Positions 2,792-38,313 of a stretch of 64,000 bases of DNA are shown piece after piece. This DNA is from Gammaproteobacteria bacterium (GTDB taxonomy: Bacteria > Pseudomonadota > Gammaproteobacteria > GCA-001735895): positions 572 through 64,571 of the forward strand of contig JAOTXY010000011.1 in assembly GCA_029862125.1 (NCBI GenBank). Direction: 5' to 3'. The translations under genes and the position numbers were made by a program. Each line of letters opens with the position of its first letter. Positions within the stretch are counted from its first letter, which is position 1. The notes under the pieces were generated by a model. The model saw only the letters and a program-made list of their open reading frames with translations. It had not been told where the DNA came from and made no database searches.

Positions 2792-3994
2792 ATGGATATT
2801 CATGAATACCAGGCGAAGGTGCTGCTGGCCGATTTTGGCATGCCGATCGCCAGGGGTGGCATCGCTTACAGCCCTGAGCAGGCTGCGTATCGAGCTATGG
2901 AACTCGGCGGCGAGAAGTGGGTCGTCAAGGCCCAGATTCATTCCGGGGCGCGCGGCAAGGCGGGCGGCATCAAGGTTTGCGCCACTGAAAACGAAGTCAT
3001 GGATGCTGCCAATGAATTGCTGGGCCGACGCCTGGTAACCAATCAAACCGGCTCACAGGGTAAGTTGGTAGGGCGGCTGTATATTGAAGAGGCGACCGAT
3101 ATCGATCGCGAGATATACCTGGCCTTTGTGCTCGACCGCAGTTCGGAGCGAATAATGTGCGTTGCATCATCAGCGGGTGGCATGGACATCGAAGAGATTG
3201 TCGAAACCGATCCCGACGCGATCGTGCGCGTACCGATCGAACCAGCAGTAGGGATGCAGGATTTTCAGGCTCGTGAAATTGCGTTTGCGCTGGGTATGGA
3301 TTCCGCGCAAATTGCCGAAGCGGTGAAGGCGCTGAAAGCCTGTTATCGTGCTTTTCGTGACCTGGATGCGACCATGGTCGAAGTCAATCCGTTGGTGGTG
3401 ACCACCGATGGCCGCATCATCGCGCTAGACGCCAAGATGGGCTTCGATGACAACGCACTGTTCCGCAGACCGCAGATATCCGAGTTACGCGACAAGTCCC
3501 AGGAAGATGCACGCGAAATGAATGCCGCGGACCGGGGCCTGAGCTATGTCGGACTGGATGGCAATATTGGCTGTATCATCAACGGCGCAGGGCTCGCGAT
3601 GGCGACCATGGATATGATCAAGCATGTCGGCGGCGAACCTGCTAACTTTCTCGATATTGGCGGTGGCGCATCGCCCGAGCGGGTTGCCAAGGCATTTAAC
3701 CTGGTATTGTCGGACGAAGGGGTCGATGCAATCCTGGTTAATATTTTCGCGGGAATCAACCGTTGCGACTGGGTTGCCGAGGGCGTGATCCAGGCGATGC
3801 AGAAACTCGACGTGCCGGTACCGGTGGTGGTACGGCTTTCAGGCACCAATGTTGAACTCGGACGGCAGATACTGGCCGATAGCGATATCGATCTGATCAC
3901 TGCAGAAACTCTCGCCGAGGCGGCCGAAAAGGCAGTGTCTGCCGCACAACTTCATCAATCGGCCAGCACCGATGTTAAGGAGGACCGAATATGA
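2792..3994 (+). CDS. mtkA: malate--CoA ligase (malate thiokinase) beta subunit
   Basis: SucC fold ([35 protein letters not shown]) with MtkA-type [12 protein letters not shown] and [10 protein letters not shown]; follows mcl. Confidence 0.88.
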
Positions 3995-33454: not shown

Positions 33455-35692
33455 ATGCCACCCAAGTCAAAACGCAAAAAGTCAAAATCCACCAGGTCCT
33501 CGCTTAAGAGAAAGTACTTCTCGATTGTGGCACTGGTTCTGGTTGCGGCGTTTGCGATATACCTCGGATACCTGAATCACTTAATCAACGGCCGTTTTGA
33601 AGATGACACCTGGGCATTGCCATCACGGGTCTTTGCCAGGGCGCAGGAACTTTATCCCGGCCTGGCACTCACGCGAGACCAGCTGATTTATGAACTGGAG
33701 CTATCAAGTTACCTCGCCGTTGAATCTGAACCGCTGCCCGGACAATATCGATTGCTGGGCGAGTCGCTCGAACTGAATACCCGCCCATTTGAATTCGGCA
33801 GCCGGTTTCAGGGTTCGAGGTTGGTGCAGGCATTTTTCGACAAGGGCCGGATTGCGGCGCTGATCGACTCTAAAAGCAGTGACGACCTGGAAATATTCCG
33901 CCTGCCCCCGGTCATTCTGGGCAGTTACTATCCGGACAATGACGAGGACCGGTTACTGCTGACCGAAGACGAGGTTCCGCAACGCCTTATCCAGGCGCTT
34001 ATAGCGGTTGAAGATCGCGAGTTCTTTGAACACTGGGGTTTGAGTCCAATGGCGATCATGCGGGCAATGCTGGCGAATCTGAAGGCGGGCAGGGCGGTAC
34101 AGGGGGGCAGCACGATTACCCAGCAGTTGGCCAAGAACCTGTTTTTAACCCCGGAAAAAACGATATTACGCAAGATTAACGAGGCTTTCATGGCCCTGAT
34201 ACTGGAGCTGCGTTTCAGCAAGCAGGCGATTATTACCGCTTACATCAACGAGGTATTCCTGCTGCAGCAAAAGCGCATTGCCATACATGGTTTCGCCCAG
34301 GCCAGTCGCATGTTATTCCGTCGCAGCGTCGATAGCCTGGAAGCGCAACACCTGGCCTTGCTGGTTGGAATGGTTAAGGGTCCTTCTCTTTACAACCCCT
34401 TCACTTCACCTGACAACGCCCTGTCTCGACGTAACCTCGTGCTCAAGATTATGCTCAAGCAGGAATTGCTCGAGCAGGTGGAATATGCAGGCGCTGTAGC
34501 CGCGCCTCTTGGCATTGTCGGACGCCTGCCGGGGGTCAATCCCTTTCCAGCCTACCTCGACCTGGTTAAACGTCAGCTGCAGACGAGTTATTCCAGCGCT
34601 GAATTATCGCGTCGCGGTTTGCGCGTGTTTACCGCTTTCGATCCGTTGCTACAGCGTAACCTGGAGCGTGGCCTGGCGCGCGGGCTTGGTCGTTTTGATC
34701 AACCCGAGTTGCAGGTTTCGGTCGTTATTGCCGACTATCTCAATGGCGATATCCAGGCCTTGATCGGTGATCGAGTAACCGATTTTCCGGGATTTAACCG
34801 CGCGCTTATGGCGCAACGTCCGATTGGGTCGTTGATCAAACCGTTACTGCTTTATAGCCTGTTAAACGATGGATTAACGCTTGCGAGCAAGGTCAGGGAT
34901 GAGCCAATCCGTATTCAACAGTCGAATGGGAATATCTGGGAACCGCGCAATTTTGACCGCGAACTGCATGGCGAAATGAGCCTTTACGAAGCATTTATAC
35001 GATCTTACAACCTGCCTTTCGTCCAGCTTGGCGTGGCAGGTGGCCTCGAGAAGCTGGCTGATAACCTGGCCAGGATCAACCTGCTAAAACACGACGTGGT
35101 TTATCCGTCGATGTTACTCGGCACCACGTCGATGTCGGCTTACGAAGTAGCCCAGATGTACCAGGTCATCGCCAACAATGGCTACTTTACACCGTTGACG
35201 ACGATACGCAGTGTCACTGACCAGGAAAATCAGACCCTGGAGCGAGTTCCGCTGGAATCACACAAGCTGTTTGACCAGGCGGGCATGATCCAGGTACAGC
35301 GTGCCATGATTGGGGTCACCGAGAGCGGCACCGCCAGGTACCTCGCAGAACGATTTCCCGAGCAGACGCTTGCTGGCAAGACCGGTACCACCAACGAGGC
35401 TCGTGATTCGTGGTTTGCCGGATTTTCGAACCGCCTGCTGTCGGTAGTGTGGCTGGGCCGGGACGATAACAGCCCGATAAACCTGACCGGTTCGTCCGGC
35501 GCATTGAAACTGTGGTCGGACATCATGGAGCTACAGGGATTCGAATCATTCAAGATAAGCCGGGACGAGAGTCTCGATTGGCGTCATATCAATCCGGCCA
35601 ACGGCGGAATTACCCAACAATCCTGTGCAATTAGTGTATTGTTACCGTTTCCCAAAGATCGGATTCCGACAACACGATCCCGATGTCAGTAA
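33455..35692 (+). CDS. mrcB: penicillin-binding protein 1B
   Basis: TM anchor, UB2H region, transglycosylase (EDREF, GGSTITQQLAKN), transpeptidase SLIK/SYN/KTG. Confidence 0.95.
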   Translation: MPPKSKRKKSKSTRSSLKRKYFSIVALVLVAAFAIYLGYLNHLINGRFEDDTWALPSRVFARAQELYPGLALTRDQLIYELELSSYLAVESEPLPGQYRLLGESLELNTRPFEFGSRFQGSRLVQAFFDKGRIAALIDSKSSDDLEIFRLPPVILGSYYPDNDEDRLLLTEDEVPQRLIQALIAVEDREFFEHWGLSPMAIMRAMLANLKAGRAVQGGSTITQQLAKNLFLTPEKTILRKINEAFMALILELRFSKQAIITAYINEVFLLQQKRIAIHGFAQASRMLFRRSVDSLEAQHLALLVGMVKGPSLYNPFTSPDNALSRRNLVLKIMLKQELLEQVEYAGAVAAPLGIVGRLPGVNPFPAYLDLVKRQLQTSYSSAELSRRGLRVFTAFDPLLQRNLERGLARGLGRFDQPELQVSVVIADYLNGDIQALIGDRVTDFPGFNRALMAQRPIGSLIKPLLLYSLLNDGLTLASKVRDEPIRIQQSNGNIWEPRNFDRELHGEMSLYEAFIRSYNLPFVQLGVAGGLEKLADNLARINLLKHDVVYPSMLLGTTSMSAYEVAQMYQVIANNGYFTPLTTIRSVTDQENQTLERVPLESHKLFDQAGMIQVQRAMIGVTESGTARYLAERFPEQTLAGKTGTTNEARDSWFAGFSNRLLSVVWLGRDDNSPINLTGSSGALKLWSDIMELQGFESFKISRDESLDWRHINPANGGITQQSCAISVLLPFPKDRIPTTRSRCQ

Positions 35693-36084
35693 CATCCCTC
35701 CTACGCTTGTTCTATCGTGTTACGACACTTTCAATGCTGTTAATTGTCGGTGCCTGTACCGTCTCCGAGATACCGAGTAACCGTTACCAGGACGATATTG
35801 AAGTCAGCATGGCCGAGGCCCGGCCGGTTACCGAACTGCAGAACCAGGCCCTCGCCGCGCTCGGTGAAGAACAGTTTCAATTGGCTATCGACTACCTGCA
35901 ACGCGCGATCAAGATACAGCCTCGCAATGCCTGGAGCTGGCATTACCTGGCACAAACCTATTGGCGCGATTCGCAGTATGACCGTTGCCTGGCCATGATC
36001 GAGCGTTCGGACAGTTACGGCATCTTCGATGATGCCCTGGTTTCTGCAAACAACAGGCTCAAGCCAAAGTGCCAGCAAGGCTAG
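35683..36084 (+). CDS. TPR lipoprotein, LpoP-like PBP1B partner
   Basis: Lipobox-like IVGA-C; TPR repeats (LQRAIKIQPRNAWSWHYLAQ); overlaps the mrcB stop. Confidence 0.75.
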   Translation: MSVTSLLRLFYRVTTLSMLLIVGACTVSEIPSNRYQDDIEVSMAEARPVTELQNQALAALGEEQFQLAIDYLQRAIKIQPRNAWSWHYLAQTYWRDSQYDRCLAMIERSDSYGIFDDALVSANNRLKPKCQQG

Positions 36085-36353
36085 TACTCCTTCAATGAGA
36101 TATCTTAAGATGCAGAGCGTCCCAAATGGGCCAAGGCAAGGCGCAGTCCGCAGGGAATGGCATGTGCCCTTTACAAGGACTGCAACGCAGCATTGGCCCA
36201 TTTGGGGCGCTCCCTTCGGGCCGGTCAGGAAGCGGTCATCTGCGTTGTTGTGCTCCTTTGAATTAGCTTCGGCTAGTCCTGCAGTCGCACGCCTAGCAGC
36301 TAACCGCTTCCTGACTGGCTGCATCCTAAGATATCTCATTGAAGGAGTACTAG
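36081..36353. mobile_element. MITE-like non-autonomous element, 273 bp
   Basis: 35-bp terminal inverted repeats with 1 mismatch (36081-36115, 36319-36353), CTAG at both ends, two internal long hairpins, no transposase. Confidence 0.8.
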
Positions 36354-36372
36354 TGTTGAAAGAGCACTAGGC

Positions 36373-38313
36373 ATGGGAGAACTTGCAGCTGAACTGAACG
36401 TGGGATCGGTGCTCGGCAATGGTGGCATCATTGGTGAAACTATCAACGATTTCCAACCACGCTCGAGTCAGCTCGGTATGGCCCAGCTTATCGATCAAGC
36501 CATCGCACTCGGCGAGTCACGAATAATTGAAGCCAGTACCGGCATCGGCAAATCCTTTGCCTACCTGGTGCCTGCTTTTTTAAGCGATGCCAAAGTAGTG
36601 ATCTCAACCGGAACCCGTAACCTGCAGGATCAGCTGTTTCAAAAGGATATTCCGTTAATCCGTAAAGCCATCGTCAGCGCCAGGAAGGTTGCCCTGTTGA
36701 AAGGCCGCAGTAATTACTGCTGCCCACACCGGTTAAAGAAATATCGTGCCGAGGATCGCTTTAAAAGCCGCGAAATGGCCGCGATATTTCGTGCAATCGA
36801 TGCATGGGCAGAACTCAGCGACAGTGGCGATATCGGAGAATTCGCCGATATTCCCGAAAATGACAGCCTCTGGTATTACGCGACTTCGAACGCGGATAAC
36901 TGTCTTGGCGGCGAATGTCCTGAAATTGATCGATGTTTCGTATTAAAGGCACGCAAACTTGCAATGGACGCGGACATACTGGTAATCAATCACCATCTGT
37001 ATTTTTCCGACCTGGCACTGAAGGAGGATGGCTTCGGCGAGTTATTGCCCGATGCCGATGTGCTTATATTCGACGAGGCACATCAACTTCCCGATATCGC
37101 CGGGAATTTTTACGGGCAGCAAATCACGATGCGGCAGATCGATAACCTTTGTCGAGATATCACCGAAGCCGAAGTCGCCGAGGCAGCAGAATCGAAAGTA
37201 CTAAAGAAGTGTGGCGATCGTTTGAATAAAATAGCCGCTGATTTAAGGTTGGCCCTGCGTCCGTTTGCGCAAAAAGCGGAGTGGGAGCGAATTCAGAATG
37301 CGCCAGCGATTCGTGAGGCAGTAACAGCGATGCGACAGTCGATCGAAGCACTCGATGATGAACTCGAGCCGATGATCAGTCGCGGTAAGGAGCTCGCCAT
37401 GTGTCATCGTCGATTGCAAACGCTCAAACTTGAACTGGCCAGTTTTCTTGAACCGACCGATAACCGGATCAGCTGGTATGAAATAAACGAGCGCAGTTTT
37501 CGGCTGGTGCAATCACCGCTGGAGGTGGCAACCGAGTTTCGCCAGCAACTCGATACGGCTGCGTTCGGGTCAGTGATTTTTACCTCTGCCACGCTGAGCT
37601 CGCAGAAGTCTTTTCAATTTTACTCCAATCGCCTGGGCCTGGACGGATTTGACAGCGTCAGTTTTGACAGTCCTTTCGATTACCCGCAACAGGCGATGCT
37701 GTACCTGCCGACGCATTTGCCCGATCCCTCCGATGATCGTTACGCAGCGATATTTGGCGAGTTATGTCGTGCGCTTATAGATGCCACCGAGGGGCGCTGT
37801 TTTATCCTGTTTACCAGTTACCGCATGTTAACCTGGACCGCAGATTACCTGCGATCCCATGTCGCCTATCCGCTACTGGTGCAGGGGGAGCTACAACGTA
37901 ACGAGTTATTGCAACAGTTCATCAAGATCGAAAATCCAATATTGCTGGGGACCAACAGTTTCTGGGAAGGGGTCGATGTCAAGGGTGACCAACTACGTTG
38001 CGTGATTATCGACAAACTGCCATTCAAATCTCCCAACGATCCCGTGTATCGAAAACGAATACAGCAGGTCAATCAGAAGGGTGGAAATGCTTTCTTCGAA
38101 GTACAGATTCCCGAGGCTACCATCAGTCTGCGCCAGGGCGTGGGCCGGCTGATTCGCGACGTCGGTGATCGCGGTATCGTGGCACTATGCGATAACCGCC
38201 TCAACACGAAATCTTATGGCAAGGGTATGCTGGATAGTTTGCCGCCGATGCAACGCAGTTCGGACCTGGACGAGGTCAGGGCATTTGCGGCACGGATGGC
38301 CGACCACGATTAA
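36373..38313 (+). CDS. yoaA: ATP-dependent DNA helicase, YoaA/DinG family
   Basis: EASTGIGKS, LKGRSNYCC, Fe-S cysteines, DEAH, SATL, LFTSY, QGVGRLIR. Confidence 0.92.
   Translation: MGELAAELNVGSVLGNGGIIGETINDFQPRSSQLGMAQLIDQAIALGESRIIEASTGIGKSFAYLVPAFLSDAKVVISTGTRNLQDQLFQKDIPLIRKAIVSARKVALLKGRSNYCCPHRLKKYRAEDRFKSREMAAIFRAIDAWAELSDSGDIGEFADIPENDSLWYYATSNADNCLGGECPEIDRCFVLKARKLAMDADILVINHHLYFSDLALKEDGFGELLPDADVLIFDEAHQLPDIAGNFYGQQITMRQIDNLCRDITEAEVAEAAESKVLKKCGDRLNKIAADLRLALRPFAQKAEWERIQNAPAIREAVTAMRQSIEALDDELEPMISRGKELAMCHRRLQTLKLELASFLEPTDNRISWYEINERSFRLVQSPLEVATEFRQQLDTAAFGSVIFTSATLSSQKSFQFYSNRLGLDGFDSVSFDSPFDYPQQAMLYLPTHLPDPSDDRYAAIFGELCRALIDATEGRCFILFTSYRMLTWTADYLRSHVAYPLLVQGELQRNELLQQFIKIENPILLGTNSFWEGVDVKGDQLRCVIIDKLPFKSPNDPVYRKRIQQVNQKGGNAFFEVQIPEATISLRQGVGRLIRDVGDRGIVALCDNRLNTKSYGKGMLDSLPPMQRSSDLDEVRAFAARMADHD

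Follow-up and report, generated by a model that had tools for sequence, protein, structure and literature searches.

A family of TA-duplicating miniature inverted-repeat elements with stop- and Shine-Dalgarno-bearing ends at gene junctions of uncultured Gammaproteobacteria

A palindromic element between a lipoprotein gene and yoaA

The window analysed here is a stretch of 64,000 nucleotides from a Gammaproteobacteria bacterium (assembly GCA_029862125.1, contig JAOTXY010000011.1, positions 572 to 64,571 of the forward strand). Between a gene for a tetratricopeptide repeat (TPR) lipoprotein and the helicase gene yoaA, it carries a palindromic, non-coding element of 267 bp (36084-36350, running GTAC...GTAC) bounded by 32-nt terminal inverted repeats (TIRs) with 1 mismatch. 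This element is almost certainly a MITE (miniature inverted-repeat transposable element), and it represents a previously undescribed family whose ends supply a stop codon inward and a Shine-Dalgarno (SD) sequence outward. The locus is organized as follows, the genes being supported by open reading frames (ORFs) and by the domains of the proteins or of their orthologues.

33455 to 35692, + strand: class A penicillin-binding protein (PBP1B-like) gene; ORF, orthologues with UB2H, Transgly and Transpeptidase Pfam domains
35683 to 36084, + strand: TPR lipoprotein gene, 133 amino acids; ORF, orthologues with TPR Pfam matches
36082 to 36083, no strand: left TA target-site duplication; one TA in the empty site of a relative (locus L090), TA-element-TA in the window
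36084 to 36115, + strand: left TIR, GTACTCCTTCAATGAGATATCTTAAGATGCAG; outer 24 nt near-invariant in 16 copies
36116 to 36212, + strand: hairpin A, a 23-bp stem with an apical sub-hairpin; repeat search, fold and covariation
36213 to 36219, + strand: junction linker with c(UUCG)g at 36214-36219; UUCG or UCCG in its place in other copies
36220 to 36318, + strand: hairpin B, stem of 24 nt interrupted by an internal loop, apex capped by c(UUCG)g at 36267-36272; repeat search, fold and covariation
36319 to 36350, + strand: right TIR, ending in CATTGAAGGAGTAC; outward SD sequence AAGGAG at 36342-36347
36351 to 36352, no strand: right TA target-site duplication; comparison with the L090 empty site
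36353 to 36369, + strand: 15-nt remnant of an older copy, GTGTTGAAAGAGCAC, with its own TA; present in L090 without the 267-bp element, absent from L080, L091 and L092
36373 to 38313, + strand: yoaA (DinG-family helicase) gene, 646 amino acids; PF00270 and PF13307, named ATP-dependent DNA helicase DinG in some sources

A repeat search of the window recovered the outer arms (36076-36115 and 36319-36358; 40 nt, 93% identity) and the arms of two inner hairpins, A (36115-36137 and 36190-36212; 23 nt, 91%) and B (36220-36243 and 36296-36319; 24 nt, 88%), and the 27-mer CTAGTACTCCTTCAATGAGATATCTTA matches the window exactly twice, once per strand, where 0 matches are expected. As RNA, the + strand of the element region (36084-36350) is predicted to form a three-way junction of -174.6 kcal/mol (z = -14.3), and the - strand folds equally stably (-168.3 kcal/mol, z = -17.2). 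A preliminary description, made from the window sequence alone, had outlined a 273-bp MITE-like three-way junction with 35-bp TIRs (34/35), CTAG at both ends and two inner stems with cUUCGg loops. The MITE character, the three-way junction, the near-perfect terminal repeats and both inner stems stand, with the length corrected to 267 bp and the TIR of the element proper to 32 nt. CTAG is indeed present at both ends, but its TA is target duplication and its outer C and G are host bases; likewise, a cUUCGg loop caps hairpin B, but the one assigned to the tip of hairpin A is the linker between A and B.

The left TIR carries CTCCTT, an anti-SD-like motif, and stops in two further inward frames (a TGA ending at +15 and a TAG ending at +25). 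Each TIR also contains a 10-bp perfect palindrome, AAGATATCTT (36100-36109 and 36325-36334), which includes an EcoRV site and might be bound by a dimeric protein. The mechanically listed overlapping ORFs at 36029-36370 (+), 35740-36339 (-) and 36126-36266 (+) all cross the palindrome, and because copies of the element differ by indels and inserted modules, no ORF within it is supported, as the preliminary description had also concluded. No second copy or degenerate terminus was found elsewhere in the 64-kb window, and a scan of 35900-36500 detected neither a sigma-70 promoter, so that an outward promoter is not supported, nor an intrinsic terminator after the hairpin. We rejected assignment to a curated structured RNA family: at a permissive threshold, Rfam covariance models gave only chance-level miRNA and snoRNA matches (E >= 0.34, far under gathering scores).

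The element belongs to a dispersed family

The family was collected by exact match to the TIR 20-mer CTCCTTCAATGAGATATCTT, and TIR pairs were then called allowing mismatches. The 20-mer occurs at 24 loci in 11 metagenome-assembled genomes (MAGs; at most 5 loci per MAG) and at 55 metagenome loci, for a total of 79 loci, and flanking sequence and gene context differ from locus to locus. The copies elsewhere in the genome by which the preliminary description proposed to judge mobility are therefore present, in unrelated contexts and in several genomes; even fragmentary MAGs carry 2-5 loci each, such as Ust_6 (L001, L003, L009, L012 and L024). Across the 79 loci, 44 TIR pairs span 54-373 bp, with a mode at 265 bp and further classes at ~243, 280-286 and 308-309 bp, and many of the 37 single TIRs lie at contig ends, the rest being truncated copies. 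All copies start with GTACTCC and end with GGAGTAC, the terminal G and C being invariant.

Read depth gives a similar picture. In the sediment DNA run X3, depth is 60-97 over the element and ~7 on its flanks (~10-fold excess), and contigs from this run part into differing sequences at 36350-36354. The public runs that contain the window locus are estuary and marine-sediment metagenomes. Carrier MAGs are labeled Gammaproteobacteria or Proteobacteria, with one Haliangium. A BLAST search of the element against plasmids gave no match, and a scan of viral contigs with the terminal 18-mer returned two chance matches and no TIR. The family is thus short and non-coding, bounded by TIRs, flanked by a target duplication visible in filled and empty alleles, and present in several copies per genome at unrelated loci, which are the hallmarks of a MITE.

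Empty alleles define the insertion and its target

L090 is the closest relative outside the lineage of the window and L004, was found by protein orthology and encodes a YoaA 93% identical to that of the window. It reads ...caaggtTA-GTGTTGAAAGAGCAC-TAGGC-ATG, matching the window sequence except that 267 bp and one TA are missing. Because L090 has a single TA and lacks the element, the TA has been duplicated and the element comprises exactly 36084-36350. More distant empty sites occur at L080-L085, L091 and L092, in which 1-3 nt separate the lipoprotein stop from the yoaA ATG downstream of it, as in caaggTTAGagcATG. The YoaA proteins of L080 and L081 are ~85% identical to that of the window, and L080 comes from a MAG that bears elements at L005 and L007. 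Empty sites in relatives, which the preliminary description had proposed to look for, are therefore available both as an exact allele and at greater distance, and together with the many copies they exclude a single copy conserved at this locus with no empty allele. In L004, whose YoaA is 97.4% identical to that of the window, the two elements differ at 3 positions. Comparison of these alleles shows that the insertion occurred after the split from the L090 lineage and before that of the window and L004.

At the same junction, L044, L058 and L067 (YoaA 82% identical) carry a 265-bp copy that has the opposite internal orientation and abuts the ATG. The yoaA junction has therefore been hit repeatedly, unless recombination between the TIRs flipped the internal part. 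The 15-nt stretch downstream of the window copy appears to be the leftover of yet another, earlier insertion at the same TA: it matches the element terminus at 10/14 positions and a GTGC-type terminus, AAGGAGCAC, at 11/14, and it has TA on both sides.

Among outward flanks, TAG is the commonest and TAA the next, and the flank consensus TAG corresponds to C-TA-G sites. In the window, the lipoprotein TAG stop (36082-36084) consists of the target TA and the first base of the element, G. Where older copies have a non-TA flank, it is usually one transition away (CAG, TGG, CAN or TGN). A bias from CTAG to CCAG or CTGG is attributed to very-short-patch repair, and the pattern of these flanks resembles that bias, though selection on the spacer before the start codon could also account for it.

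The preliminary description had considered an IS5/IS701- or an IS630-type transposase acting in trans. We rejected the 4-bp CTAG or YTAR duplication of IS5/IS701, given that the G and C beside the TA are invariant bases of the element and that the flanks of L024 (CTAG and CTAA) and L011 (GTAG and CTAA) have only TA in common. TA duplication is an attribute of IS630/Tc1-type transposases, and a 2-bp TA duplication at a CTAG-like target is what the family displays. Because the duplication is of 2 bp and a CTAG duplication is excluded, our best guess from these footprints is mobilization in trans by an enzyme of the IS630/Tc1 type. No autonomous element or transposase with matching TIRs was found in ~0.6 Mb of flanking DNA, in which no TIR pair exceeds 373 bp, and no transposase-like ORF lies inside the single TIRs of the collected loci.

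Both ends carry translation signals

Read outward, both termini are CATTGAAGGAGTAC, a consensus SD sequence; neither this nor the stop codon described below had been noted in the preliminary description. At 22/83 unique ends, an ORF of at least 100 amino acids with an ATG or GTG start begins within 15 nt (1-14, with offsets mostly of 1-8), compared to 4.4% of the intergenic TA sites in the same loci that served as the control (p = 8e-12), and the spacing from GGAG to the start clusters at 4-11 nt. Start positions were checked against orthologues for YoaA of L044 (MAELATELNV, compared to MGELAAELNV in the window) and MoeB of L076 (MDEKQRDRY, compared to MNEEQSDRY in the empty alleles).

On the inward side, TA and the first G of the element form a TAG stop. 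An ORF of at least 100 amino acids ends exactly at this TA|G in 11/32 non-redundant sites, where ~10% would be expected by chance (p = 2e-4), and 7 more ORFs end inside the TIR, at the TGA (+15) or the TAG (+25). By hand tally, at least 12 independent loci combine an upstream stop, the element and a downstream start 1-14 nt beyond it, and in these loci the element constitutes the whole intercistronic region. The window copy fits this arrangement on its left side, and on its right side the older remnant lies in between. The preliminary description had placed the element between the lipoprotein stop and the yoaA start, which agrees with the TAG at its left edge and the yoaA ATG (36373) downstream. 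We consider it likely that the termini are used as ribosome-binding sites (RBSs).

The cluster of thiS, a small ORF and moeB offers a second view of the same process. In the empty alleles, L088 and L089, the moeB start shares bases with the stop of the upstream gene (ATGA), and this overlap is the ancestral state. Filled alleles carry elements of 308 bp (L068), 243 bp (L017 and L076), 54 bp (L062) and ~77 bp, and in L086 and L048 nothing but the 3' half is left, apparently because the sequence between two GGCTAG repeats was deleted. Every filled or decayed moeB allele keeps TTGAAGGAGTAC, followed by TCG or CAG and the ATG. In L086 and L090, both found by orthology and not by TIR, the surviving part is the gene-proximal, SD-bearing end. 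Decay asymmetry was judged on these two alleles, as loci found by TIR carry a detection bias, and with n = 2 the survival of the SD-bearing end is the best evidence that a terminus acts as a present-day RBS.

The stems are kept by compensatory changes on both strands alike

The covariation check that had been proposed for the predicted stems was performed on 16 copies of 264-267 bp (94% mean column identity), whose consensus fold is the same three-way junction. Ten pairs are changed on both sides, compared to 3.9 +/- 1.3 in shuffles (0/500 reach 10) and 1-4 in slid controls. Examples are the column pair 45/116 in hairpin A (CG 6, UA 4, GC 3, UG 2, AU 1) and 152/224 in hairpin B (GC 9, CG 2, AU 2). 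The three-way junction is therefore real and is maintained by compensatory changes.

Strand-specific selection on RNA, with G-U pairs and UNCG loops favoring the strand that reads from A to B, was considered and dropped: over 19 copies oriented to the downstream gene, the total energy is -2988 kcal/mol in sense and -2984 kcal/mol in antisense, with 109 and 108 G-U pairs, respectively. Orientation to the gene is also mixed, hairpin A facing the gene in 12 copies and hairpin B in 5 (hand tally). Template switching can correct quasi-palindromes. The palindrome is therefore kept as such, possibly by selection acting in either orientation, by the needs of transposition or by template-switch correction. 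The preliminary description had read recent mobility or selection on structure from the near-perfect pairing; the comparison with L090 supports recent insertion, and compensatory changes are evident. The interest of the family lies in its junction-compatible ends and not in a strand-specific RNA.

How the element may be tolerated within operons

We consider it very probable that a TA-duplicating MITE inserted into the lipoprotein stop of the PBP1B/lipoprotein/yoaA operon and that its ends, by bringing a stop and an SD sequence, make it tolerable at junctions. The preferred target is a TA within CTAG, and in the window it was the TA of the lipoprotein TAG. Insertions would be tolerated in that TA and G restore the stop, the TIR closes two further inward frames within 25 nt, and the SD sequence faces outward. 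Because the ends restore a stop and offer an SD sequence, the family is concentrated at originally tight or overlapping stop/start junctions, and such ends probably explain why copies persist there.

In the window, the SD of the element (36342-36347) lies 25 nt from the yoaA ATG, and the AAAGAG of the remnant lies 7 nt before it. The window yoaA would thus probably use the SD of the older remnant, possibly through a relay by a 5-codon mini-ORF, GTG TTG AAA GAG CAC TAG (36353-36370), that derives from the remnant and its TA. Its GTG at 36353 begins 5 nt past the SD of the element and its TAG (36368-36370) ends 2 nt before the yoaA ATG, and it could pass re-initiating ribosomes on to yoaA. The window copy is likely transcribed within the operon mRNA, as a 380-nt metatranscriptome contig covers 36047-36420 and runs uninterrupted across the whole element; this is a single contig, and contamination by DNA is possible.

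In such an mRNA, the TIRs would pair over ~30 bp, the AAGGAG would be sequestered by the CTCCTT of the other arm, and the foot of the three-way junction would place the upstream stop beside the downstream start. Translational coupling could then be retained, since a ribosome that terminates on the 5' arm would open the lowest pairs of the stem and lay the SD sequence bare; our confidence in this mechanism is low to moderate. Cutting of the long duplex by RNase III could also free the SD, as an alternative or in addition. Any effect of the hairpin on translation, by coupling or by RNase III, is inferred from the predicted fold. A stronger version of coupling holds that the family has evolved to be invisible to translation, an insert of 54-373 nt looping out to keep the coupling of an ATGA or 1-3-nt junction, with the terminating ribosome melting the CTCCTT/AAGGAG pairs and being handed over to the SD. 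We put this forward only tentatively and lean against it; if true, selection for looping out would explain the compensatory upkeep of the stems in either orientation.

Several observations weigh against the proposal of a mobile element with functional ends. A bias of insertion toward the TAs of stop codons where junctions are tight, as opposed to use of the SD, could partly explain why SD and start are adjacent, and in the window the SD of the element is too far from yoaA to be its direct RBS. In most older copies just one flank still has TA and the opposite one is usually CA, TG or TC, which has to be explained by later change. No parent or transposase was found, so that mobilization is read from footprints only. 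Template switching can produce compensatory changes in a DNA palindrome with no selection on structure, and both strands fold alike. Finally, the metatranscriptome contig might derive from contaminating DNA.

We also considered whether the main effect of the element is on mRNA processing or stability, as for Correia elements, in which case RNase III would cut the 32-bp duplex, uncouple the cistrons and free or destroy the RBS. A long, near-perfect duplex within an operon transcript would suit this, and RNase III is bound by Correia elements, some of which it cleaves and others it protects (PMC2649163; PMC10969869). The metatranscriptome contig, on the other hand, is uninterrupted through the whole element. 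We regard processing as a reasonable possibility, short of an even chance, for the main effect; it is compatible with SD-bearing ends that are tolerated at junctions, and the two do not exclude each other.

Another explanation is that the SD-like termini are functionless, and that an element preferring TA in CTAG, TAG or TAA simply lands at stops, so that wherever genes are tightly packed its far end automatically comes to lie next to a start. The target TA, the TAG flank consensus and the enrichment of stop-codon TAs are consistent with this, as are the empty alleles, whose stop and start overlapped or were separated by no more than 1-3 nt to begin with, and the window yoaA, which does without the SD of the element. 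However, an insert of 54-373 bp removes the native RBS located in the upstream coding sequence (for example AAGG in caAAGGttagagcATG), so that a replacement is needed, the GGAG-to-start spacing clusters at 4-11 nt, and in L086 and L090, decayed alleles identified through orthology, it is precisely the SD-bearing end that survives. We therefore think it unlikely that the termini lack a function.

The element might also be a composite in which hairpins A and B are independent, REPIN-like mini-elements nested in a simple TIR hairpin, of which the 54-bp form would be an example. A and B are each complete palindromes in themselves, of ~98-100 nt, hairpin A is inverted in one copy (L075), some variants lack A or B, and short modules (X, Y and Z, described below) occur at several internal positions. 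Such nesting is nevertheless improbable, as the hairpins and modules do not occur outside TIR-bounded copies in the collected loci, the one exception being 20 nt in L014 that match module Y. Metagenome depth is also even over the TIRs, A and B, and parts of hairpin A persist in the short forms L009 and L006, making them deletion derivatives and not progenitors.

REPINs are hairpin-rich, and their structure is reported to be kept by compensatory changes. The same traits, together with the one-sided TA of most old copies, could point to mobilization as single-stranded DNA by an HUH/Y1 enzyme, as for REP/REPIN with RAYT or IS200/IS605-like elements, rather than by a DDE transposase. The youngest copy, however, has a clean 2-bp TA duplication relative to its empty site, the terminal repeats are as long as 32 nt, the termini read GTAC, whereas REP superfamilies have GTAG or CGTC heads (PMC3733652), and no RAYT-like gene or ORF lies beside any copy. 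We accordingly rejected the REP/REPIN class and consider HUH/Y1 mobilization very improbable. Lastly, a locus-specific structured RNA (leader, riboswitch or small RNA) controlling yoaA, which the very stable fold directly upstream of that gene might suggest, can practically be dismissed, as Rfam gave nothing above chance, the fold has no strand asymmetry, the same sequence lies beside dozens of unrelated genes in both orientations, and its absence at yoaA in close relatives, with empty alleles, contradicts it.

Relation to known elements and significance

In its behavior the element resembles Correia, RUP and ERIC, which are TA-flanked MITEs. RUP-type MITEs are small, non-coding elements with TIRs and a TA target duplication, thought to be moved in trans by an IS630-family transposase. 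RUP of Streptococcus pneumoniae is 107 bp long, with IS630-Spn1 as candidate parent and no reported RBS function, whereas no parent was found for the family described here; RUP and other IS630-mobilized MITEs are listed in Table 1 of PMC3184786. The Correia elements of Neisseria (CREE/NEMIS) are similar in being TA-flanked MITEs with TIRs that are co-transcribed, form long mRNA hairpins, carry expression signals at their ends and occur as size variants (PMC2649163; PMC3184786). Compared by description, they differ in length (104-157 bp), in their shorter TIRs, in end signals that are promoter or IHF sites and not SD sequences, in having no three-way junction and in their unrelated hosts.

Neisseria REP2 and the Borrelia IR repeats are likewise dispersed just upstream of ORFs and supply an RBS (PMC3184786). 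REP2, in contrast, has no TIRs, is directional and also brings a promoter and an ATG, while the element described here is a transposon, symmetric in that either end bears an SD, and rebuilds the upstream stop. Chunjie of Geobacter uraniireducens shares a very stable predicted fold and a position inside an operon without disruption, to judge from the title of its report (Chen et al. 2008) as cited in PMC3184786 and PMC10969869; it differs in having 21-bp TIRs, 9-bp direct repeats and an A+T-rich composition. ERIC/IRU of Enterobacteriaceae is also an imperfect palindrome in transcribed intergenic regions of operons and has longer variants with insertions (PMC3184786), but it is 127 bp long, forms a single hairpin and lacks a terminal SD.

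A 2011 review mentions RBSs only for REP2 and the Borrelia IR repeats (PMC3184786), a 2024 review of prokaryotic MITE functions has no mention of ribosomes or Shine-Dalgarno sequences (PMC10969869), and a full-text literature search for MITEs with Shine-Dalgarno sequences or translational coupling found nothing relevant. We accordingly regard this as a new MITE family, whose novelty lies in its symmetric stop- and SD-bearing termini and its preference for junctions.

The usual view of MITEs is that they are disruptive or donate promoters by chance. The family described here points to a different route to persistence in gene-dense genomes, in which a stop inward and an SD outward, present at either end, let copies sit at operon junctions. 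Should the hairpin keep coupling as well, the element would be a natural, portable intercistronic module; long-range RNA structure would then couple cistrons across hundreds of nucleotides, and the element could serve as a part for synthetic operon design. In more practical terms, the family is a marker for a clade of uncultured sediment Gammaproteobacteria, and its copies fragment assemblies and mislead gene callers about where genes start.

Variant copies and further observations

Longer copies (308-309 bp in L053, L068, L028, L030, L043 and L071; also L020, L014/L025, L007, L001, L024 and L051) differ from the 265-bp form by small modules, which may have been inserted in these copies or lost from the others. 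Module X (22 nt, CCAAAAGTAGGCGCTTTAGGCG) occurs at CA^A sites, at three different positions and in either orientation, module Y is ~17 nt long (TGATGCGGCACCCCGAC), and module Z, of ~36 nt, is present in both hairpins of L001 and L024. A search of the collected loci for free-standing modules X, Y or Z or hairpins A or B found none other than the Y match in L014, at 424-443. In the copy at L075:7324-7588, hairpin A is flipped in place relative to hairpin B and the TIRs, which suggests recombination between the arms of the inner palindrome.

At L006:3098-3215, an 82-bp deletion derivative lies within the central TA of another perfect palindrome (GTTTTAGTGCAGACC-TA-GGTCTGCACTAAAAC), a site in keeping with a preference for CTAG targets that are palindromic. 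Mini-hairpins that have diverged but have related termini, GTACCCCTTC...GAAGGGGTAC, were observed at L010:4724-4758 and in L011 at ~2986-3047, and may represent an older or a sister subfamily. The L019 copy (CAXMQY010000045.1) is on a contig binned as 'uncultured Haliangium sp.', the only carrier label other than Gammaproteobacteria or Proteobacteria, and this contig is probably mis-binned.

In the host operon, the lipoprotein gene overlaps the 3' end of the PBP1B-type gene, whose orthologues have UB2H, and yoaA normally follows this pair by 1-3 nt. The combination of a PBP1B-type gene with a TPR lipoprotein gene is reminiscent of the Pseudomonas PBP1B activator LpoP. Within the 90%-identity cluster of YoaA, some members are annotated as 673 amino acids long rather than 646-649, and these annotations may reflect gene callers extending the start upstream into the element or the remnant.

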